From Candidatus Dojkabacteria bacterium (GTDB lineage: Bacteria; Patescibacteriota; Dojkabacteria; J137): a stretch of 64,000 nt of DNA. The notes beneath the pieces were generated by a model. It saw nothing but the letters and a program-made list of their open reading frames with translations, had not been told where the DNA came from and ran no database searches. Numbering within the stretch: the stretch's first letter is position 1; the number at the start of each line of letters is the position of its first letter. A program made the translations under genes and the position numbers. Below, in pieces: positions 8,421-64,000 of the stretch. The DNA lies in NCBI GenBank assembly GCA_025999215.1, contig AP024679.1:433082-497081 (forward strand). Direction: 5' to 3'.

Positions 8421-9707
8421 CTATTTAACTTTTTCTATTTGTGCTCCAAGTGTTAAATAAGTTTCAACTAATTCAGGATAACGTCTGCTCAATTGATCTG
8501 TTTCGTCAATTAAGGTTGAAACGCCACTTGCACCAAGTGCCGCTACAAATAAAGCTTTGGCTGAAGCGATAATATTCGGAGCTTTGATTACTGTACCTTC
8601 TAATTTGCTTGGCCCAAAAGTTATCACTCTGTGAGGATCTGCCATTACAACATTTGCTTTAAGTTTTGCTAGCTCTTCTATGAAGTAAAAGCCGTACTCG
8701 TAAAATGAATTATGAAATATTAAACTTCCCTCTGCAAAACATGCAGCGACTACTAGTGATTGTATAGCATCAGGAGGAAATTGTGGCCAATGTAGCGCCA
8801 TAATTTGAAATAAATCTCCTCTAACAGTTTTGTGAGCTTTTAATTTTTGATTTTTAGGAATTATAAGTTTATCTCCTTCGTAGTAAGAGTTAAGATTTAT
8901 TTTTTCAAAGGCAGATCTAATATTTGTCATGTGTTCTGGAATTGCGTTATTTATAGTGAGCTCGCTTCCAGTGACAGCAGCTATTGCCATATATTCTGCG
9001 ATATCTAAATGATCACTTATCACATTCCACTCTGTTCCCTTAAGTTTATCTACACCATTTATCACTAATTTGTTAGAGCCAATGCCTTTAATTTTAGCTC
9101 CCATGCTAACCAACATGTTACATAAATCTTGAGTGTGAGGTTCACAAGCAGCATTGTAAATTTCTGTAACTCCAGGCGTTAGTACAGCCAAATTAATTAA
9201 ATTTTCTGTTCCTGTAACACTTGGAAACCAAGACCAAACTTTTGCGCCTTTTAATTTTTTTGCCTCTAAAAAATAACCTTTTTCTCTTCTGTAAACAGCA
9301 CCAAGTTGCACCATATTATCAATAAAAGCATCCAGTGGCCTTGAACCTAATTTACACCCCCCCGGTATAGGCATTTCAGCTTTTCCAAATCGATGAAGAA
9401 GTGGCGCCATAAACATTACAGAAGCCTTTGCTTTTTGGGATAAATCCTCATCGATTTTATAAGTATTAATACCTTTAGCTACTATTTTCACAGATGTTCC
9501 ATTGTTAAAATACGTAACCTTACCGCCGAGAGTTTTTACAATTTTAAGCATTATTCTTACATCAGAACTTTTAGGAACATTGTGTATGATTACTGGTTCA
9601 TCAGTCAATAAACTAGCTGGAATTAATTTTAAAATTGAATTTTTATTTGGAACTGGAGTAACCTCACCATTTAGTTCTATGCCTCCTTGAATTTTATATA
9701 CAGCCAT
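8421..9707 (-). CDS. murA: UDP-N-acetylglucosamine 1-carboxyvinyltransferase
   Basis: YKIQGGIELNGEV, the PGGCKLGSRPLD active-site Cys loop, and full length of 428 aa. Confidence 0.95.
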   Translation of the reverse strand: MAVYKIQGGIELNGEVTPVPNKNSILKLIPASLLTDEPVIIHNVPKSSDVRIMLKIVKTLGGKVTYFNNGTSVKIVAKGINTYKIDEDLSQKAKASVMFMAPLLHRFGKAEMPIPGGCKLGSRPLDAFIDNMVQLGAVYRREKGYFLEAKKLKGAKVWSWFPSVTGTENLINLAVLTPGVTEIYNAACEPHTQDLCNMLVSMGAKIKGIGSNKLVINGVDKLKGTEWNVISDHLDIAEYMAIAAVTGSELTINNAIPEHMTNIRSAFEKINLNSYYEGDKLIIPKNQKLKAHKTVRGDLFQIMALHWPQFPPDAIQSLVVAACFAEGSLIFHNSFYEYGFYFIEELAKLKANVVMADPHRVITFGPSKLEGTVIKAPNIIASAKALFVAALGASGVSTLIDETDQLSRRYPELVETYLTLGAQIEKVK

Positions 9708-9912
9708 TGATTAAATTTAAAATATTTTAATAATTATACCTTAAAATTAAAAATTACTCTAAAATTTCGAAAGGGGTAGTTAGATAATAACGTTAAAGTA
9801 TTTAGTATTCTAAAATTAAGAAAACCATTTTGCAGTTTTGGCTTTCTATGAGGATAACCAGGCCAGCAGCAAGGTCTATTTGCGCTTGTTGATTTTTTTT
9901 CTAAAATCAATA
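9672..9912. repeat. Direct repeat copy 1 (murA 5' end + promoter region + 3' remnant of a ydeI-like gene)
   Basis: The 146-bp core 9681-9826 matches 12179-12324 with about five substitutions counted by eye. More diverged homology continues to about 9912. The offset to copy 2 is 2498 bp in the same orientation. Confidence 0.85.
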
Positions 9913-10088
9913 AAAGATACAAAAATACACTCATCTTGTTTGGATGATTTTCACTTCCATGTAAGAGGTTTTATAAATATAGTTTAAATTATCTTTTTTC
10001 TGTATACTTTCCAGATTGTATTGTTCAGTAGATAGTATTTCAAACTTAAATTTCCATAATTGTCATTTTCTAACTTCTGTCAATAAGT

Positions 10089-12113
10089 TTAATCAGGAAC
10101 TTTTTGTAGTAAAAATTCTCTACAGTAAATCCTGGGTGGTTTAGACCAATCTATTTCACCATCAGGTTTGCGCTCATGTAAAATAAAACATCCATATCCA
10201 TATTGCCTTAACCCTATTCTACTGATCACGATCACATTATTTTTTAATTTTAATAGTTCTTTAACATATTTGTGATGCTTACGGGTTGCGTACATATTTT
10301 CATATATTCCATACTTTATACCAAAGTTACATGTGTACACACTAACATGTTTGCCATCCTCACATGCTTTGACATTTAGAATGGGTTCAACTGGTACATA
10401 CTTGAATCCTGCCCTTTTCCAATTATCTACTGCTTGATATACTCTTAACCAAGAAATAAATTCTTCATTTGATATGACTCTTCTATTACTTTTGTTGTCT
10501 AGCTCTTCAGTAATAATTGGGGGCTTTTTCTCTGCTTTTGATATTTCTTTTATTTCTGATTTTTCAAGGTTTTCTATTAGTTTTAATACATCTTTTTCGA
10601 TTGGTTTTCTATTTTTTTCTGGCAGATACTCAAAATTCCAAGCAAACCCAGGCGCAGCTTCTTTTGGTGCCATATCAATAAGTAGTCTAGCTACCTGTAA
10701 TTGATTCCCTTCATGTAAAGATGGGAGTCTAAAAGCGACCTCGTAAGCGGTTCCTTTTGGGTTTACACCCATAAGTAACTTAATGACTGCTAATTGATTT
10801 TTTTCTGACAAGTCCCGAAGTTGCCAAGCCACATTGCGAAGAAATTCGTCATTAATTGCTTTGGGAGCTTTTTCTATAAGTGAAGTAATAATTTCTATTT
10901 GAGTATCTTCTGGTAAACATGCTAAATGGCCAGCGAGGTTCTCAGCAGACTCTTGAGGTGCTTTTTCAACAAGTAGTTTAGCAATATCTCCCCTAATATC
11001 TTCAGATATATCATCAATTTTGTCAGATAACGGGCCTGCCGTTGGATTTATATATTCATCCTTATGTAACATGTACAAAATTTCATTTTTGATTTCTTGG
11101 GGTAATTCTTCAAATTCGCAAATTTCCCGAGCAAGTTCAGGTGCCGCTTCTTTTGGTGCTATATCGAGCAGTAAATTAAAGATATGTATCATTTGCTTTT
11201 CAGAAATAAACTCGCCGACATAAAAAAGTTTTTTAGCAAGTTCAGGTGCAGCTTCTTTTGGTGCTTTCTCTAGAATTAATTTTAATATTTCCATTTGAGC
11301 TTTTTCTGGTAAATATATGGCCTGATTTGCAAGCCCTGGTGCAGCTTCTTTAGGAGCTTTTTCTATAAGCTTTTTTGCGAAGTCTGCTCTAACTTCTTCT
11401 GGAAGGTCATTAATACCCCAGGCAAGTTTAGGTGCAGCTTCTTTTGGTGCTATATCGAGAAGCTTGTTTGCAAAGTCTACTCTTGTTTCTTTTGGAAGAT
11501 AAGAAACACTCCAGGCAATTTCAGGTACCGCTTTTTTGAGGGCTACATCAAACAGTAAATTAACAATTTGTTTTCTATTTTCGTATGGAAAAGATTCTAT
11601 GGAGCTAGCGATTACTGGAGCCGCTTCTTTGGGGGCATTCTCTAGGAACCAAGGTAATGCTTCTCTTTTAACCTCTGATGGGAGGTACTTAAAATTTTCA
11701 TATTCAGCTATTGCAGAAGTCACTTTTTTTAAATTTTTCTCCTTTATATGTTTTAAGAGCATTTTACAGATTTTTGTAAAAACTGCTGGTTCAAGAAGGC
11801 GATACAAATCTGAAATAAAGTTAGCAAGTTTAACCCCAGCTTCCTCTGGAGCGATATCTAAAATCTCTTGGGTTTTTTCGAAATAATCTCCTTGTTGACT
11901 ACATAGTGATAACATCGCATCAGTTATTTTAAAGTTTATTGGATCATTTTCGATAATGTTCTGGTATTGCCTTTCTAAATTTTCAACTATTTTTTGAAAC
12001 TCATCCTGGGACCATTTAGGTGCACCTGGCAAATGATACATTTCATAGTTTGCTATCATGTTGCGTGCCGTTTCACTTAAACTTGAATTAATTGAGGAAG
12101 TATTTTGTGACAT
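10089..12113 (-). CDS. 674-aa tandem-repeat (alpha-solenoid/HEAT-like) protein with unassigned C-terminal domain
   Basis: About a dozen units of roughly 31-36 aa of the form L(I/L)(E/D)xAPKEAAPxLAxxxxxLPEExxxxxxxxL. The only gene lying between the two direct repeats. Confidence 0.7.
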   Translation of the reverse strand: MSQNTSSINSSLSETARNMIANYEMYHLPGAPKWSQDEFQKIVENLERQYQNIIENDPINFKITDAMLSLCSQQGDYFEKTQEILDIAPEEAGVKLANFISDLYRLLEPAVFTKICKMLLKHIKEKNLKKVTSAIAEYENFKYLPSEVKREALPWFLENAPKEAAPVIASSIESFPYENRKQIVNLLFDVALKKAVPEIAWSVSYLPKETRVDFANKLLDIAPKEAAPKLAWGINDLPEEVRADFAKKLIEKAPKEAAPGLANQAIYLPEKAQMEILKLILEKAPKEAAPELAKKLFYVGEFISEKQMIHIFNLLLDIAPKEAAPELAREICEFEELPQEIKNEILYMLHKDEYINPTAGPLSDKIDDISEDIRGDIAKLLVEKAPQESAENLAGHLACLPEDTQIEIITSLIEKAPKAINDEFLRNVAWQLRDLSEKNQLAVIKLLMGVNPKGTAYEVAFRLPSLHEGNQLQVARLLIDMAPKEAAPGFAWNFEYLPEKNRKPIEKDVLKLIENLEKSEIKEISKAEKKPPIITEELDNKSNRRVISNEEFISWLRVYQAVDNWKRAGFKYVPVEPILNVKACEDGKHVSVYTCNFGIKYGIYENMYATRKHHKYVKELLKLKNNVIVISRIGLRQYGYGCFILHERKPDGEIDWSKPPRIYCREFLLQKVPD
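10640..11860 (-). repeat. In-frame coding tandem repeats (about 93-105 bp period) inside the 674-aa gene
   Basis: The recurrent DNA motif ggtgc(a/c)gcttcttttggtgc (reverse complement of APKEAAP codons) occurs near 10655, 11145, 11240, 11335 and 11430, with degenerate copies elsewhere. Confidence 0.8.
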
Positions 12114-12165
12114 ATTTTGATAAAGATAAAATAAAAATTTTGGTTATTCTACAACATACTCAATG

Positions 12166-12408
12166 CATCTAACTCTACGCCTCCTTTAATTTTGTATACA
12201 GCAATTGATTAAATTTAAAATATTTTAATAATTATACCTTAAAATTTAAAATTACTCTAAAATTTTGAAAGGGGTAGTTAGATAATAACGTTAAAGTATT
12301 TAGTATTCTAAAATTAAGAAAACCTTTTTTTCATTTTGGATTTCTGTGAGAACAACTAGGCCAGCAATAAGATGTTTTTGCACCTGTAGATATTTCTTTT
12401 TCTAAAAG
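12166..12408. repeat. Direct repeat copy 2 (dead murA 5' remnant + promoter copy + ydeI-like 3' end)
   Basis: Contains ATT GCT GTA TAC AAA ATT AAA GGA GGC GTA GAG, versus murA ATG GCT GTA TAT AAA ATT CAA GGA GGC ATA GAA. The upstream block is the same as in copy 1. Confidence 0.85.
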
Positions 12409-12591
12409 GTTTAAACGTTTATTTCTAGTAGTTCCTTTTTAGCAGCGCTTAACCAACATATCCATTCATTGCGAGCTAATTGTGTGAGTTTACCCCAGAC
12501 ATCATTTTAAATAGTATTTTTTGAGCATATTATCAAGATCAAGCGGCACTGCATGAAAATAGTTTTGTATACTTTTATAATTTTTATTCAT
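12331..12591 (-). pseudogene. Small YdeI/OmpD-associated-like gene with two frame disruptions
   Basis: Three frame segments: MNKNYKSIQNYFHAVPLDLDNMLKKYYLK* / NDVWGKLTQLARNEWICWLSAAKKE.. / TTRNKRLNLLEKEISTGAKTSYCWPSCSHRNPK*. The ARNEWI.W...AKK.ETR.KR and CCWP-type tail recall the YdeI C-terminal domain (from memory). Confidence 0.5.
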
Positions 12592-12708
12592 TATTTTTTA
12601 ATTAGGGAAGTTCTAATAATTTAAGAAGCGGTTTTTATTTTTTGGAAAAATACAATTACCTGAAAAGATATCTAAAAAAAGCAAATAAAAAAAACTAATT
12701 TTTAATCT

Positions 12709-12784
12709 TGGTGCCGAGGGGCGGACTCGAACCGCCGACACCACGATTTTCAGTCGTGTGCTCTACCAACTGAGCTACCTCAGC
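12709..12784 (-). tRNA. tRNA-Phe (anticodon GAA), CCA encoded
   Basis: The reverse complement reads GCTGAGG TA GCTCAGTTGGTAGAGC A CACGA CTGAAAA TCGTG GTGTC GGCGGTTCGAGTCCGCC CCTCGGC A CCA (76 nt). Confidence 0.95.
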
Positions 12785-12917
12785 ACTACGCTTGATTATA
12801 CACCGTTTTTTTCAACTTTGCGAATTTTTTTTTGTTTGTATTAAAAATTGTTTAGAATTATAGTAATTTTTTTTAAAGTGTTGTACAATTAATTAGTTTA
12901 CATTTTAATTGAAATTT

Positions 12918-13739
12918 ATGGAAGAATCAAAAACTACTTCAAACCAAGATATGAAGACTGAAAAAGTTAAATCAAATGGAAAAAGTAAGGTCTGGTTGAT
13001 TGCAGGTTTGTTATTTGTGATTTTTTTATGTTGTTGTTTGTGTGTGGGAGTTTTGGGTTATATGTTGTTTCAATCTGAAGATTTTAAAGAGGGATATTGT
13101 GAATCACTAGAAGAGGATGATGCATTGGATAATGATTTGTTAGGTTTGTGTGATGATTGGGAACCATCTTACGAAAAAGAAGATACCAAGGTTAGTTCAA
13201 ATGACAGCGATAAAAAAGCTGACGTTGTAGACAACAATACAGACACTAAAAAAGATGAATCTAACGACAAGAAGCAAAATAATGATAGTGCTTATGTTAT
13301 TTATGATGGTTATTACTTTTCATTCGAATATCCAAGATATTGGAAACAAAGCACATCTTCTACAGATTGGTCAACAGTTGAGTTTACATCTGAAGAAGGA
13401 GTTGTAATTAGTTTAAAATCAATTTATGATAATGAGTATTCAAAGAATTTGTCAGGTTGTAGTGAATATGAAGAGTCAATTTTTAGTGGTTTGACTAGTG
13501 TGTATGATAATGTTGAGTCTGAATCTGTTTTATTTACAACTACGGAGAATGGATATGCCGCTTGTTATTTAAAAGGTTATCTTGTTGATGGACCTATTAC
13601 TACAGTTTTAGAGCAATATTTAGTATTTGATCCTTTGATTGATACTTTTGCTTTAGAATTTGGAATTAAATACGATTCTAGAGATTCTGGCATGGGTAGT
13701 TACTTGCAACATGCTGTTGATACATTAACGTTTGAATAA
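12918..13739 (+). CDS. Hypothetical membrane-anchored protein (N-terminal TM, acidic linker, C-terminal globular domain)
   Basis: Intact ORF. An ATG at 12918 is preferred over the TTG at 12909. TM segment VWLIAGLLFVIFLCCCLCVGVLGYMLF. No family recognised. Confidence 0.6.
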   Translation: MEESKTTSNQDMKTEKVKSNGKSKVWLIAGLLFVIFLCCCLCVGVLGYMLFQSEDFKEGYCESLEEDDALDNDLLGLCDDWEPSYEKEDTKVSSNDSDKKADVVDNNTDTKKDESNDKKQNNDSAYVIYDGYYFSFEYPRYWKQSTSSTDWSTVEFTSEEGVVISLKSIYDNEYSKNLSGCSEYEESIFSGLTSVYDNVESESVLFTTTENGYAACYLKGYLVDGPITTVLEQYLVFDPLIDTFALEFGIKYDSRDSGMGSYLQHAVDTLTFE

Positions 13740-13818
13740 ATTTTAAAAAGCAAGAAATATAACTGAACCTAACATATTGATTTAATTTAAAAGTGTTGTT
13801 ACAATTTGTTGTTTGCTT

Positions 13819-13895
13819 GGGCGCCTAGCTCAACTGGCTAGAGCATCCCGTTTACACCGGGAAGGTTATAGGTTCGAGTCCTATGGCGCCCACCA
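13819..13895 (+). tRNA. tRNA-Val (anticodon TAC), CCA encoded
   Basis: GGGCGCC TA GCTCAACTGGCTAGAGC A TCCCG TTTACAC CGGGA AGGTT ATAGGTTCGAGTCCTAT GGCGCCC A CCA (77 nt). Confidence 0.95.
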
Positions 13896-14008
13896 AAAAA
13901 TCTGTGTTTGTCGTTTTCGTTTTTTTTATTCAAAATATTCCCATACTTTGCTTGTGATTTTATTGTTTGGAATCTCTTTTAAATCTTTTCCTAAATTTTA
14001 TAAAAAGC

Positions 14009-14014
14009 TATAAT
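14009..14014 (+). promoter_or_regulatory. -10 box TATAAT 5 nt upstream of the nth GTG
   Basis: gcTATAATaaaccGTG. Confidence 0.4.
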
Positions 14015-14019
14015 AAACC

Positions 14020-14682
14020 GTGAGTAATGAAAAAATTAAACAAAAGGCAAAAAAGGTTAATGCGTTGTTAAAAAAAGAATACCCTATAGTTAAAACTCCT
14101 TTGCACCACAAAAATGCCTGGGAACTTTTAATTGCAGTTATATTGTCAGCTCAAACTTTAGATGAAACGGTAAACAAAGTTACTCCAAGGCTTTTTAAGT
14201 TATACAATTCATGTTATGAATTAGCTGGGGCTAATTTGGCTGAAGTAGAAGAAGTTATAAAAGGCGTAAATTATTATAAAACCAAAGCCAAAAATATTAT
14301 CAAGACATCTCAAAAGCTAGTAGAAAATTTTGATGGTAAAGTACCAAATAAAATTGAAGAATTAACAACTCTTCCTGGTGTTGGTAGAAAAACTGCCAAT
14401 GTTATAATAAACGAGTGGTTTTGTAGGCATGATCAGAAAGTTTTACCTCAGGGATTTGTTGTTGATACTCATGTAGCTAGGGTTTCAAAGCGTTTAGGTT
14501 TTACTAAGCATTCTGATCCTACTTAAAATTGAGCAAGATTTAATGAATTTGTTTGATCAGATCTGATTGGCCTGAGTTGAGTTTGAGATTGATTTTTCAC
14601 GGGAGATATAGGTGTACCGCTCGTCAACATTTATGTTGTGAGCATGATAGATTGGAGTAAACTTTGTCAATGTTTATGTTAA
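14020..14682 (+). pseudogene. nth: Endonuclease III (Nth), frame-disrupted in its C-terminal third
   Basis: The HhH-GPD core is intact (LIAVILSAQTLDETVNKVT, LPGVGRKTANVI, VDTHVARVSKRLG) up to the stop at 14524-14526. The homologous sequence continues as KIEQDLMNLFDQ and then SDWPELSLRLIFHGRYRCTARQHLC in two other frames. The 4Fe-4S Cys spacing is not intact. Confidence 0.8.
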
Positions 14683-14686
14683 CATT

Positions 14687-15963
14687 ATGGAATTTAATTT
14701 AGTTTCTGAGTATAAACCTGCTGGTGATCAACCACGAGCGATTGATACGCTTTCTAATGGTTTGCTTGCTGGGAATCAAGCACCAAACGCTTGGTTGGTG
14801 CGACCGGAACTGGTAAAACTTTTACAATGGCAAATATCATACAAAATCTTGGGAAACCTGCTTTAATTCTTTCTCACAACAAAACTTTAGCTGCTCAATT
14901 GTTTGCTGAATTTAAAAAATTTTTTCCTTACAATGCTGTTGAGTATTTTGTGAGTTACTACGATTATTATCAGCCTGAGGCTTATGTTCCCTCAAGAGAT
15001 TTGTATATTGAGAAAGATGCCGATATAAACGACACAATTGAGCGGTACAGGTCTTCAGCTAGCCAGTCGCTTTTGACAAGAAAGGATGTGATTGTAATTT
15101 CAACCGTTAGTTGTATCTATGGGCTAGGGAATCCTGCAGATTATTTAGAATTAAGTTTTGAATTTAATGTTGGGGAAAGTTATAAACGCGATAATATTTT
15201 AGCGCGACTAACAGATATGCAGTATGAAAGAAACCAACTTGATTTCATGCCTGGGAGTTTTAGAGCCATTGGTGAGATTATTGATATTTATTTAACAAAT
15301 GCAAATGATGAAGCTGTAAGGTTAGAGTTTTTTGGTGATGAATTGGAATCTATAAAGATAATTAATCCTCTAACAGGCGAGTTTGTAAAAAATTTAAATT
15401 CAGTTATTATTTTTCCTGCCAAACACTATGTAAGTCCACATCATAAACTAATGGAAACGATTGAAACAATAAGAGAAGATATGAAAAAAGAAGTTCAGCA
15501 ATTTTTGGATAAAGGAAAGGTGGTGGAAGCAACGAGACTTAAGCAAAGGGTTGAATATGATTTGGAAATGATTGCTGAAACAGGTTTTGTAAAAGGCATT
15601 GAAAATTATTCTAGATACATTGACAGAAGACCACCCGGAAGTGCGCCATCATGTTTAATTGATTATTTTCCTCATGATTACATTATGTTTATTGATGAAT
15701 CACATATAACTGTTCCGCAAATTGGAGGAATGTACAATGGCGATCGCGCACGGAAACAGAGCTTGGTAGATTATGGTTTTAGGATGAAAGCAGCGCTAGA
15801 TAATCGACCTTTGAAATTTGAAGAATTTGAACAAAAATTAAACCAAGTTATTTACACCACGGCAACGCCAAGGGATTATGAAATTCAGAAAAGCATGAAT
15901 GCAACAGAAGAAATTAGGGAAAAAAGCCCTCAAATATTCAGTGGAAAAATGTTAGAATATTAG
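14687..15963 (+). pseudogene. uvrB: UvrB N-terminal half (about 425 codons) with two single-nt frame disruptions next to the Walker A motif
   Basis: MEFNLVSEYKPAGDQPRAIDTLSNGLLAGNQ (frame a), HQTL (frame c) and VGATGTGKTFTMANII (frame b). The extra bases are about 14780 and 14793. It ends ...TATPRDYEIQKS plus a 22-aa tail and TAG. The rest of UvrB is at 63780. Confidence 0.85.
15953..15958 (+). promoter_or_regulatory. Extended -10 (TGTTAGAAT) 6 nt upstream of the DUF368 ATG
   Basis: aaaTGtTAGAATattagaATG. Confidence 0.35.
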
Positions 15964-15964
15964 A

Positions 15965-16910
15965 ATGAAAATCAAGATTAGAAATATTTCACAAAAGGAA
16001 TGGTGATGGGTCTTGCTGAGGTTATCCCTGGAGTGAGTGGGTCAACCATGGCTTTGGTGATGGGTATTTATGATGATTTCATCAATCTACTCTACTCTTT
16101 TTCAAAGTTGGCGCAAAATTGTGTTGAGTTTTTGTTTCGAAAGAAAAGATTTTTTTGATCTTAAACAAGAGTTGACTGAACTATCTAGAATGGGGTTTTG
16201 CTATACCTTTGTTTTTCGGCATGATTGTGTCAATTTTATCTTTTGCCAATATTTTAAACTATTTCATTGATAAATCACCGGGTTACGTGCTTGCTTTTTT
16301 CTTTGGATTGGTGGTCGCATCGGTGTCAATTCCACTTCAGAGAGTTGGTAAGACCCAACATTTTGAAAGTTCTTTTGTTCTTGCTTCTCTCTTGCTTTTT
16401 TCTATTTTTTGCTTGGAGTTGATCCTATTGAGTTAAACGGTAAGCCAAATTTAGTTTATGTATTTTGTTGGGGGTATGCTTGCCATTTGCGCAATGAGTT
16501 TGCCTGGAATTAGCGGTTCTTTTATTTTGCTATTGTTGGGTTTGTATGAATACATTATTTCTATAATTAAAGATTTGTCTCATTTTAAGTTTAACTTCAG
16601 TGATTTTACTAGGTTGGTTGTTCTTTCTTTTGGTGTGGTGGCTGGATTTGTATTGTTTGTGAGAATACTAAAATGGTTGCTTTCAAAATACGAGGGCGAA
16701 TTGATGGCTTTTCTTGCAGGCTTGATGTTGGCATCGCTAAGAATTTTGTGGCCATTTATCGATAATTCACAGGAAGTTTCGAGAGTTTGGATGCTTATCC
16801 CAAGGTGATGTTAGAGTTAAGTAACACTGAACACCTTGTACACGGTTGCAATTATTGTAGCAAGTGCTGTAGCCGTCTTAGTAATCAAAAAGATTTCTGA
16901 TAAAATTTAA
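15965..16910 (+). pseudogene. DUF368-family membrane protein, fragmented by at least six frame disruptions
   Basis: GLAEVIPGVSGSTMALVMGIYD and AMSLPGISGSFILLLLGLYEY are the duplicated DUF368 signature. The homologous sequence hops between frames near 16000, 16140, 16196, 16400, 16460 and 16805. The C-terminal helix TLYTVAIIVASAVAVLVIKKISDKI ends at 16910. Confidence 0.7.
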
Positions 16911-16914
16911 GAGG

Positions 16915-18834
16915 TCACACCAAGGAAGCTTTGAGTCGCCTCAGGTTTGAGCCTATGTTTTCTTGTTTTAAAATTTTGAACTTTTTATTATTCTCTCCCA
17001 AAACTCCTGTTGTTTCAACATGCGGTCCTCCGCAAAACTCTTTTGAGAAACGCCTCATCTAAACTATTACCTATAAAATAAATGGTTACTTTGTCGGGAT
17101 ATTTTTGTCCAAACTCCATTTCTGCACCAATTTTTTGTGCTTCGCCTGAGAGGCATTTCTACTCTCTTCACTGGTAAATTTTCTGTGATCTTTTGATTGA
17201 CAATATCTTCAATTTTTTTGATTTCCTCTTCTGTAATTTTTTTTGAATAGTTAAAATCTATTCTTAATCTTTCAGAAGTTATGTTGCTACCTCTCTGGTG
17301 AATATTTTCGTCTAACACAAGCTGTAATGCTCTCAAAAGCAAGTGGTGAGCTGTGTGAAGCTTGGTTGTTTCGTGCGAGTGATCTGCCAAGCCTCCAGTA
17401 AATTTTTTTTGAGCGCCGGCACGAGATTGTTCTTTATGTTGTTCTAGCAACGTTTTAAAACCAACTATGTCTACTATAAATCCTATTTCTTTTGATAATT
17501 CTTGTGTCATTTCTACTGGAAATCCATAAGTTTCATAAAGATGGAAAGCTTCTTCACCTTTTAAGAAATTTCTATGAGGATTTTCGGATTTTTTGATATC
17601 AGTAACGATTTTGTAAAATTGCTTAATACCATTGTCTAGAGTTTTTCTAAATTTTATTTCTTCTTTATCTATTTCATCAATTATAAACATCTCCTTTTCT
17701 TTAAGATGAGGATAAGCATCTTTCATTTTTTCAATTACTAGGCTTGCCAAATCCTTGGTGAAATTTTTTTCTATTCCAAGAATTTTTGCATGTCTTATCA
17801 TCCTTCTGATTAAGCGCCTCAAAATATACCCTTGATCTTTGTTAGATGGCGCAATTCCATCGGCAAGAATAAAAGTTGATGCTCTTGCATGATCAGCTAT
17901 AATCCTGAATGCTTTCGTATATTTACTTCTGTTCTTCGTTGTGATCGTATTTGTGGCCTGATATATTTTCTATTGCGTTGATGTAGTCAATAAATAAATC
18001 AGTTTCGTAAACTGAGCGCTTGTTTTGAACTGTAGCGACAATTCTGTCTAGCCCTCCTCCATAATCAATGTTTTTTTGCTCCATAGGCTTCCATTTTCCA
18101 TCCTCAAATCTGTATTCCATAAAGACACTGTTTCCAATTTCTAAGTATCTTCCTGAATCATCATTAATGTGCAGTTTTTCTCCAGTATCATTTAATACTG
18201 TTTGCATATCATAAAAAATTTCTGAGCACGGTCCACCCAATTCTCCATTAACCTCGGGCCCTCTCTGCCACCAATTGTCTTTTTTACCATAAGGAAATAT
18301 TCTAAATTGCCAATTTTGACTTGATTCACCCTGTTGAGGAACATTTGTAATATCTTCACTAAATTTCGCTTCTATTCCATATTTTTTAAATGCCTTTATC
18401 CATGCGTCAATGGCTTCATCATCGCGAGGTATATTATCATCTCCTCCCCAGACGCTAGCAAAAATTCTTTGGGGATCAAGTCCGAACTTTTCTACATAAA
18501 GCTCCATTTTCCAAAGTATTTGTTCAGTTTTTGAAAAAGCGCCCAAAGACCAGTTACCGATCATTTCAAAAAAAGTTAAGTGATTGTAGTCGCCAACATC
18601 TTCAATATCATTTGTTCTTAGACATCTTTGTACATTACACAATCTTTTTCCCAAAGGATGAGGCTGTCCAGCTAGATATGGCACAAGTGGAAACATGCCT
18701 GAATTTACAAAAAGTAAAGTTGGATCATTATTTGGGACAAGGGATACATTCGGGATAATTTTTGCATTTCTTGGAGAACTTGTCCAAAATTTCAAAAATT
18801 CATTTCTTATTTCATCGGATGTTTTCATGAACAA
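16915..18834 (-). pseudogene. alaS: Alanyl-tRNA synthetase with three single-nt frame disruptions
   Basis: N-terminal catalytic part (FLKFWTSSPRNAKIIPNVSLVPNNDPTLLFVNSGM, FFEMIGNWSLG), middle part (AFRIIADHARASTFILADGIAPSNKDQGYILRRLIRR, HTAHHLL) and C-terminal part (GAEMEFGQKYPDKV, FSKEFCGGPHVETTG). The parts lie in successive +1 frames, with breaks near 17925, 17152 and 17050. Confidence 0.85.
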
Positions 18835-63773: not shown

Positions 63774-63779
63774 CAAAAT

Positions 63780-64000
63780 ATGAGTTTAATTCTTCCAAAA
63801 AATTACAAAGGTGTTGTCAAACAAGTGATTAGACCAACTGGGCTTTTGGATCCATTGGTTGAGGTCAGGCCAACCATGCCTGAAACTTTTGACAAACTTA
63901 AATTATCTTTACGAGAAAATGGATATGAAGACATGCCCACCTACAAAAAAACAACATGGTTAAAACCACAAATTCCTGATTTAATCGAAGAAATTGAAAA
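63780..64000 (+). CDS. uvrB: UvrB C-terminal half, separate ORF (3' end outside window)
   Basis: MSLILPKNYKGVVKQVIRPTGLLDPLVEVRP...QIPDLIEEIEK. The IRPTGLLDP block follows directly after the point where the N-half (14687-15963) stops. Confidence 0.85.
   Translation, partial: MSLILPKNYKGVVKQVIRPTGLLDPLVEVRPTMPETFDKLKLSLRENGYEDMPTYKKTTWLKPQIPDLIEEIE

Follow-up and report, generated by a model that had tools for sequence, protein, structure and literature searches.

Single-base insertions that split four adjacent conserved genes in a circular Dojkabacteria assembly are best explained as consensus errors

Four consecutive conserved genes in the published circular genome of a Candidatus Dojkabacteria bacterium are interrupted by 16 frame breaks, which lie between positions 14,521 and 17,943 of the window, meaning the whole 64,000-nt stretch of DNA analysed here, a part of AP024679 (MAG KatS3mg085). 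The genes are nth, the N-terminal half of uvrB (uvrB-N), a DUF368 gene and alaS, and beneath the breaks their coding signal is intact. We consider it highly probable (about 0.9) that the extra bases arose as consensus errors in the published assembly and are not part of the organism's DNA, and we infer that the reads themselves lack them.

Frame breaks in nth, uvrB-N, the DUF368 gene and alaS

The identities of the four genes were confirmed with Pfam and NCBIfam, and their coordinates are given in Table 1 together with those of the adjoining features. When the proteins of a relative, L005, were used as tblastn queries, several HSPs in shifting frames were returned for exactly these four genes, with the frame order 1>2>3 for nth, 2>1 for uvrB-N, 1>3 for the DUF368 gene and -2>-3>-1>-2 for alaS. 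Frameshift-aware protein-to-DNA alignment, for which the intact syntenic proteins of L005 served as the main reference, and which was repeated with an equal insertion and deletion penalty and with L006 as a second reference, placed a total of 18 extra nucleotides over about 3.4 kb, from 14 events that are clearly +1 and two that are +2. Unambiguous +1 insertions thus account for 14 of the 16 sites and unambiguous deletions for none (0/16); the two +2 sites could alternatively be read as -1 plus an extra codon, with the +2 reading favoured at both in a 13-sequence alignment. Another candidate reference, L001, was dropped, its assembly being noisy and its own alaS in fragments.

Table 1. Features of the damaged stretch and its surroundings, in window coordinates
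Feature	Position	Strand	Details
Variable island between murA and nth	9708..14019		adjoins the damaged stretch
ydeI/OmdA-like small gene	12334..12591	-	+1 near 12506, within an A run, and -1 or +2 near 12435
nth (endonuclease III)	14020..14682	+	extra bases at about 14521, 14558 and 14649
uvrB N-terminal half gene (uvrB-N)	14687..15963	+	extra bases at 14780 and 14790; corrected product 424 aa
DUF368 / VCA0040-like (polyprenyl-phosphate transporter-like) gene	15965..16910	+	ten extra bases at 8 sites: 15986 (+2), 16144, 16193, 16356, 16375, 16463, 16776 (+2) and 16841; corrected product 311 aa
alaS (short-type alanine--tRNA ligase with editing domain)	16915..18834	-	extra bases at 17943, 17144 and 17050; corrected product 636 aa
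uvrB C-terminal half gene, start	63777..64000	+	begins MSLILPKNYKGVVKQVIRPTGLLDP; RPTGLLDP motif; runs past the window end

The first-pass annotation, which was made from the letters and their open reading frames, had described many breaks in these four consecutive genes, all of insertion type wherever they could be resolved. Both statements are borne out by the tblastn frames and the frameshift-aware alignment, with 16 sites in total, all 14 resolvable events being +1 and no deletion needed. It had located the right breaks at coordinates that were off by a few to about 20 bases, and its estimate of at least six for the DUF368 gene, while correct as to multiple breaks, fell short of the 10 nt found at 8 sites. 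Were insertions and deletions equally frequent, the probability of an all-insertion spectrum would be at most about 6e-5 on the basis of the 14 clear events, or 1.5e-5 counting 16 sites.

Also in agreement with the earlier reading, in which a ydeI-like gene was the sole broken conserved gene outside the four, all 12 of the 12 flanking syntenic genes gave one HSP in one frame with no break in tblastn. From nth to alaS the rate is about one break per 300 nt, compared with none detected in the rest of the window (the ydeI-like gene apart), where the other approximately 51 kb of coding sequence would be expected to hold about 170 breaks at that rate. Inside 14.0-18.8 kb, clustering of the breaks was not significant (P 0.08 to 0.17).

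Coding signal beneath the breaks

After removal of the extra bases no in-frame stop is encountered in 1,588 codons, and the corrected products are collinear with their syntenic orthologues in L005, at identities of 64.5% (Nth), 77.4% (UvrB-N), 52.3% (DUF368) and 78.1% (AlaRS). These values fall in the same range as those of the unbroken flanking genes against L005 (51-86%). Orthologues are intact in L005, L006 and L007, as well as in 14 further genomes. At columns that are otherwise invariant, private changes numbered two in UvrB-N, none in DUF368 and two in AlaRS (rank 10/17), with no outliers. In these genes a random substitution would create a stop in about 5.3% of cases, and real decay would be expected to leave between 2.9 and 9.5 nonsense codons (18 indels, with 3 to 10 substitutions per indel), against the zero that were seen (P from 0.06 down to 8e-5).

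Corrected Nth consists of 217 aligned residues, followed by Leu-Cys and a stop codon, and spans positions 1-192 of the 192 in TIGR01083 with a score of 230.7 bits (cut-off 211.7). Its Cys-rich tail, RYRCTARQHLCCEHDDWSKLCQC, matches the L005 tail RYRCMAQKNLCCEHETWSKLCSC, so that what had been taken for a scrambled Fe-S tail is instead a third +1 insertion, at 14649. The two breaks in uvrB-N sit just upstream of the Walker A motif, and the corrected protein, which aligns gap-free with the 424-aa protein of L005, covers positions 1-407 of the 653-position UvrB model. The corrected DUF368 protein shows 100% coverage of its homologues and keeps 51 of the 51 invariant columns of alignment A1. Corrected AlaRS extends over positions 2-592 of 595 in NF002436 (631 bits, cut-off 529), with the HxxxH and CGGPH editing motifs intact.

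The length of UvrB-N is a separate matter, as uvrB is naturally split in this lineage. About 113 of the best 120 UvrB-N matches are stand-alone proteins of 398-441 aa, and the C-terminal half is encoded by a separate gene about 48 kb away; because of that C-half gene at 63777, uvrB-N is to be regarded as half of a split gene and not as a truncation. The first-pass annotation had treated it as a remnant, where we find a complete, lineage-typical half gene. The typical N-half and the C-half at 63.8 kb together rule out a "truncated uvrB" as a sign of real decay, and the split accounts for nothing beyond the "missing" UvrB C-terminus, leaving the frame breaks to be explained otherwise.

Assembly provenance and sequence context of the insertions

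KatS3mg085 (AP024679) was assembled with metaFlye 2.8.3 from PacBio HiFi reads above Q20 (Kato et al. 2022, PMC9671151). It is a circular MAG with a mean coverage of 10.8x, the read N50 of the underlying data was 10.5 kb, and its status in Table S3 of the source paper is "Finished"; the same sample, from the Katase hot spring, also yielded another MAG from that order, KatS3mg086 (J137), at 5.9x (PMC9671151). Short-read polishing is not mentioned in the methods of that paper, and the word "polish" is absent from it. INDELs without support from any read have been documented in metaFlye HiFi assemblies (bioRxiv 10.1101/2025.04.22.649783; for metaFlye and metaMDBG also Nat Commun 2026, PMC13087279), as have, for these assemblers, contig paths through variable sites that are backed by one read (bioRxiv 10.1101/2025.04.22.649783). 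At least two fragments of the split genes were deposited as "hypothetical protein" (KatS3mg085_434 and KatS3mg085_438). An exact-product look-up returned no identical products of the window's proteins on record, the best match to corrected AlaRS in a scan of genome contigs was 61% identical, and same-species DNA was not found in two metagenome scans with patterns that tolerated inserted bases.

Errors in HiFi reads are usually indels concentrated in long homopolymers. In the damaged stretch none of the 25 A/T runs of six or more and one of the six G/C runs of four or more is affected, in keeping with the earlier remark that the sites are not long homopolymers, and 8 of the 14 single insertions are unlike either neighbouring base. 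Because they avoid long homopolymers, the insertions are not typical HiFi read errors, and an ordinary, well-covered consensus should therefore not produce them; a stretch with poor support or strain variation would account for them better. No common sequence motif, DNA-modification motif or slippery run was found at the 16 sites. A test for tandem alleles, in which a polisher writes out both alleles of a SNP, was weakly positive across the single insertions (10/14 against a null of 0.43, P=0.03) and gave 6/8 against a null of 0.59 (P=0.3) at non-homopolymer sites, both by simulation with the same aligner. Tandem writing of strain SNPs is possible as one sub-mechanism, which we do not claim. 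Repeat-driven misjoining was also considered and rejected, as its sole candidate, a 233-nt direct repeat at 9668/12166, is too short to confuse 10-kb reads.

The variable island next to nth contains a 674-aa repeat protein, the ydeI-like gene, tRNA-Phe, a 276-aa ORF and tRNA-Val, and is missing from syntenic L005 and differs in content in L006. An Rfam search returned four tRNAs only. A stitched ydeI-like peptide matches PF13376 across both junctions (E 9e-11). The gene is indeed broken, as had been reported; its assignment to the same damage is less secure, since the break includes a probable deletion, unlike the insertion-only stretch at 14,521-17,943, and lies in the variable island. Possibly the gene is part of the bad stretch too; alternatively, it may be a genuine island pseudogene with a separate cause.

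For the four genes, it seems probable that the contig over 14.52-17.94 kb rests on a single low-accuracy read or very few of them, or on mixed reads of co-existing strains. The affected stretch measures 3.4 kb, or as much as 5.5 kb with the ydeI-like gene counted in, and adjoins a strain-variable island; in either case single-base insertions would have been retained or introduced by the consensus about once every 300 nt. This is the pipeline step that we infer to lie behind the insertions, and in the cell nth, the uvrB N-half, the DUF368 transporter gene and alaS would all be intact and functional. With 10.8x coverage, a chance fall of read depth to 1x or below along more than 3 kb is improbable under a Poisson model, and a systematic cause is therefore assumed, such as strain variation at the site, the filtering of alignments or the way the polisher behaves. 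The suggestion made at the outset, of a consensus or polishing problem biased towards insertions or of a haplotype with poor support, draws support from the insertion spectrum, the lack of nonsense codons, the absence of excess change at conserved residues, the clean flanks, the essential role of alaS and the provenance of the assembly.

Alternative explanations and comparison with known systems

The breaks are real in the deposited sequence, and could be taken at face value as a genuine pseudogene cluster in which nth, uvrB-N, the DUF368 gene and alaS were inactivated at this locus, with function supplied from second copies or a host. Patescibacteria have reduced genomes and are thought to be host-dependent (source paper, PMC9671151), and the neighbouring ydeI-like gene, with its mixed indel spectrum, resembles an ordinary pseudogene. 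We nevertheless regard such decay as very unlikely, since the spectrum consists of insertions alone, nonsense codons are absent, conserved positions are not altered to excess, and in every relative examined each gene is one intact ORF within the same syntenic order. Bacterial gene decay, as Mira, Ochman and Moran reportedly concluded in 2001, is normally deletion-biased and substitution-rich. The enzyme encoded by alaS is universally essential, and only one KatS3mg085 AlaRS is present among the best 120 matches. Moreover, 18 extra bases in four adjacent genes and none in 12 neighbours would demand a very recent and strictly local burst. Such a burst can be imagined, for example as error-prone repair synthesis along a tract of some 3.4 kb next to a recombining island, and would place the insertions truly in the lineage; we give it the same very slight chance. 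If it had occurred, nth, uvrB-N, the DUF368 gene and alaS would have been lost at once, and the cell line would be dying or rescued by a host or another copy.

It is conceivable, if rather improbable, that the contig was threaded through a read from a rare, defective or damaged variant, in which case the molecule would be real and unrepresentative. Single-read paths of a minor subpopulation have been documented for these assemblers (bioRxiv 10.1101/2025.04.22.649783), the stretch borders the variable island, and at 3.4 to 5.5 kb it is shorter than the read N50 (10.5 kb). No living variant, however, could tolerate a broken alaS, and an indel-only pattern with intact conserved residues resembles sequencing noise rather than mutation; in practice this reading shades into the artefact explanation. 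Programmed recoding, whether by +1 ribosomal frameshifting or by transcriptional slippage at the break sites, has next to no chance of being correct. The shifts at 14521 and 14558 can be placed equally well at the next in-frame stop (TAA and TGA), in the style of "shifty stops", but these two sites fit through placement ambiguity and the other sites fail: at 14649 and at 14780/14790 the homologous frame switches well ahead of any stop, and the 16 sites share no motif or slippery run. No orthologue is shifted at any of these positions, a lack of conservation by which recoding is effectively already refuted, and we know of no precedent for sixteen recoding events over four genes.

Loss of Nth, UvrB, the DUF368 transporter or AlaRS by the cell has almost certainly not occurred, and on the consensus-error reading the breaks have no biological meaning. 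Their importance is for data quality, in that a "Finished" circular MAG, AP024679, would carry a multi-kilobase stretch of insertion errors that splits four conserved genes. Such errors lower apparent completeness and could pass for the loss of DNA-repair and tRNA synthetase genes in Dojkabacteria, and re-polishing of the AP024679 record, or annotation of its genes in corrected frames, is called for. The local, insertion-only, non-homopolymer and island-adjoining pattern should be a useful flag for similar assembler artefacts.

Several known systems resemble this locus in part. Pseudogene clusters, such as those of Mycobacterium leprae and recent endosymbionts, likewise present adjacent conserved genes with multiple frame disruptions, but in their decay deletions and insertions occur alongside nonsense and missense changes, and essential genes such as alaS are spared, whereas here there are insertions only, no stops and no excess substitutions. 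In programmed +1 frameshifting of the prfB type, and at the "shifty stops" of Euplotes, one skipped base likewise restores the frame; the breaks described here differ in having no conserved site, motif or conservation among orthologues. Nanoarchaeum equitans, which has a split alaS, offers a likeness in the natural splitting of a gene, which here affects uvrB, while alaS is a single ORF in all relatives. The closest parallels may be the indel errors of long-read assemblies (the IDEEL-type frameshift problem), which likewise truncate predicted proteins; with the metaFlye and metaMDBG INDEL cases this locus shares a long-read-only metaFlye metagenome, modest coverage and intact sequence beneath. 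Unlike those errors, the present ones occupy one stretch of 3.4 to 5.5 kb and are not scattered, are all insertions and have no tie to homopolymers, a combination indicating that support or polishing failed locally, rather than general read noise.

Frame breaks in four consecutive genes

Fragments of four genes, identified from an ORF listing and Pfam matches, occupy the interval from 14.0 to 18.85 kb, and the remainder of the 64-kb window consists of long, densely packed, unbroken ORFs; Rfam and ARAGORN matches in the window were four tRNAs and nothing else. The closest homologue of the UvrB N-terminal protein (77% identity) lies on L005, a JGI contig from a syntenic relative whose gene order is identical to that of the window from 1 to 24.6 kb: L20, IF3, ThrRS, ClpP, DUF192, MutL, MurB and MurA, followed by Nth (237 aa), UvrB-N (424 aa), DUF368 (310 aa) and AlaRS (637 aa, minus strand), and then a P-type ATPase, cobalamin adenosyltransferase and an 853-aa protein. 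Two further relatives, L006 and L007, also carry nth-uvrB-N, with alaS close by in the reverse orientation; each is a single ORF, and other genes take the position of DUF368. Another related contig, L001 (JGI 3300045909), carries alaS in pieces of 500, 46 and 49 aa (10001-11894), broken at positions that differ from those in the window and surrounded by many tiny ORFs without Pfam matches; it appears to be another error-laden assembly and was rejected as a reference.

When 16 L005 proteins were used as tblastn queries, all 12 flanking genes gave one HSP in one frame, and each of the four target genes gave several HSPs with shifting frames. Breaks were placed by frameshift-aware protein-to-DNA alignment. 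A rerun that penalised -1 deletions and +1 insertions equally, with L006 as second reference, recovered the same sites: 14 unambiguous +1 events, no unambiguous deletion in the four genes, and no event of either kind in the control genes. The two 2-nt sites in DUF368 are formally also readable as a deletion plus an extra codon; the +2 solution fits in length at both in a 13-sequence DUF368 alignment. The total is 18 extra bases at 16 sites in 3.4 kb. These results bear out the first-pass annotation, which had described four consecutive genes broken by insertions, with frame restored by removing one nucleotide at resolvable junctions that are not long homopolymers (0 of 25 A/T runs of at least 6 in the genes carry an insertion).

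Features of the damaged stretch, the adjoining island and the split uvrB (window positions)
Feature	Position	Strand	Breaks or remarks	Basis
nth, endonuclease III (HhH-GPD), fragmented	within 14.0-18.85 kb	+	14521, 14558, 14649	Pfam; frameshift-aware alignment
uvrB-N, UvrB N-terminal part, fragmented	14687-15963	+	14780, 14790	Pfam; frameshift-aware alignment
DUF368/VCA0040-like membrane protein, fragmented	within 14.0-18.85 kb	+	15986 (2 nt), 16144, 16193, 16356, 16375, 16463, 16776 (2 nt), 16841	Pfam; frameshift-aware alignment
alaS, alanyl-tRNA synthetase, fragmented	16915-18834	-	17943, 17144, 17050	Pfam; frameshift-aware alignment
uvrB C-half	63777-64000	+	canonical RPTGLLDP motif	
Island between murA and nth	9708-14019		4.3 kb	
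ORF of 674-aa protein	10089-12113	-		
93-nt (31-aa) tandem repeats	10593-11648		diverged	
233-nt direct repeat	9668-9900 and 12166-12398			
ydeI/OmdA-like gene	12334-12591	-	+1 in A run ~12506, probable -1 ~12435	

Coding signal in the corrected genes

With the extra bases deleted, the four genes contain no in-frame stop across 1,588 codons and align with L005 gap-free or nearly so, at identities of 64.5 (nth), 77.4 (uvrB-N), 52.3 (DUF368) and 78.1% (alaS), the same range as the clean neighbouring genes (51-86%). The Fe-S tail of Nth had been described as scrambled, but correction restores RYRCTARQHLCCEHDDWSKLCQC, with the Cys pattern of L005. Corrected Nth and AlaRS score above NCBIfam equivalog cut-offs end to end, and corrected DUF368 keeps 51 of 51 invariant columns. 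Private changes at otherwise invariant positions, counted in alignments of 17-32 orthologues, number two in UvrB-N, none in DUF368 and two in AlaRS, with no outliers.

AlaRS of this lineage is short (~636 aa). It comprises catalytic, tRNA-recognition and editing domains and matches the short-type alanine--tRNA ligase model NF002436 (595 positions) end to end. Many CPR/DPANN "alanine--tRNA ligase-related" entries in the AlaRS match list are ~300-460 aa and look partial or possibly split.

To correct the first-pass annotation, the uvrB-N gene is whole and not a remnant. Of the 120 closest homologues, about 113 stand alone, with lengths of 398-441 aa, on long Dojkabacteria/Patescibacteria contigs, and the C-half begins at 63777. 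The natural state of uvrB here is two separate genes ~48 kb apart: one encodes the first RecA-like half, which ends ...TATPRDYE...SGKMLEY, and the other encodes the helicase C-terminal half, which starts MSLILPKNYKGVVKQVIRPTGLLDP. A literature search found no published description of this split.

A variable island between murA and nth

The island is absent from L005, has different genes in L006, and appears to be a hotspot for changes in gene content. It contains a 674-aa protein, a broken ydeI/OmdA-like gene, tRNA-Phe, a 276-aa ORF without a Pfam match, and tRNA-Val. The ydeI-like gene is indeed frameshifted, as had been noted, and its mixed indel spectrum and position inside the island suggest that it may be a genuine pseudogene and not the same artefact. 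Because of this, 5.5 kb is only an upper bound for the bad stretch, of which 3.4 kb is certain.

The 674-aa protein has no Pfam match; its tandem repeats, in which a motif "APKEAAP...LA" recurs, are reminiscent of helical repeats. Through the direct repeat, with a core of ~150 nt at ~96% identity, the murA 5' end and the sequence upstream of it recur before the 674-aa gene. The second copy holds a murA start remnant of ~17 codons (AVYKIKGGVELDALSML, then a stop), and copy 1 additionally shows traces, now degenerate, of the 3' end of the ydeI-like gene.

Decay, recoding or consensus error

Genuine decay would leave substitutions as well as indels. A random substitution in these genes has a 5.3% chance of producing a stop codon, and at the usual bacterial ratio of 3 to 10 substitutions per indel, from mutation-accumulation studies, 18 indels would be accompanied by 2.9 to 9.5 nonsense codons; none was seen (P 0.06 to 8e-5). 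That every one of the 14 clear events is an insertion has P <=6e-5, leaving deletion bias aside, and P = 1.5e-5 over all 16 sites; the known bacterial indel bias is towards deletion. alaS is an essential gene, and only one AlaRS entry from KatS3mg085, the MAG holding the window, occurs among the best 120 matches. The deposited fragments KatS3mg085_438 and KatS3mg085_434, from an 862,240-bp contig of this Candidatus Dojkabacteria MAG, are 100% identical to window proteins. Programmed recoding was ruled out, since none of the breaks is found in L005, L006, L007 or the orthologue alignments, and no motif common to the sites was found. A "shifty stop" +1 reading can be placed at two Nth sites, but it does not work at 14649 or in uvrB: the shift of homologous frame there comes long before any stop. 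The insertion-only spectrum, zero stops and retained conserved residues thus uphold the earlier view that an insertion-biased consensus artefact is more likely than decay. We consider the observation confirmed and give the artefact a probability of about 0.9; the four-gene damage is very probably no real biological feature, and the main value of the stretch is as a data-quality flag.

The reads were PacBio Sequel II HiFi with a Q20 filter, assembled with metaFlye 2.8.3 in a study whose text does not contain the word "polish" (PMC9671151). Its Table S3 lists KatS3mg085 (AP024679) as circular and "Finished", with 31.4% GC, 10.8x coverage and GTDB order J137, and a second J137 MAG from the same sample, KatS3mg086 (5.9x, 226 kb).

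The consensus error may have arisen in a poorly supported stretch or, alternatively, in a strain-mixed one. A random fall to <=1x across >3 kb at 10.8x is improbable by a Poisson estimate. Strain mixing was addressed by asking whether each inserted base resembles the other allele at a synonymous SNP, placed next to the first as a polisher with mixed strains might write it; this tandem-allele test was weakly positive over all sites (10 of 14 vs a null of 0.43, P=0.03), with P=0.3 at non-homopolymer sites. We therefore commit to a general consensus error by either route. Eight of the 14 single insertions are unlike both neighbouring bases, and the insertions lie off long homopolymers and therefore differ from ordinary HiFi read error. 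The damaged stretch adjoins a variable site, the island. Indels that none of the reads support have been documented in metaFlye HiFi assemblies, as have contigs routed across variable sites with just one read behind them (bioRxiv 10.1101/2025.04.22.649783).
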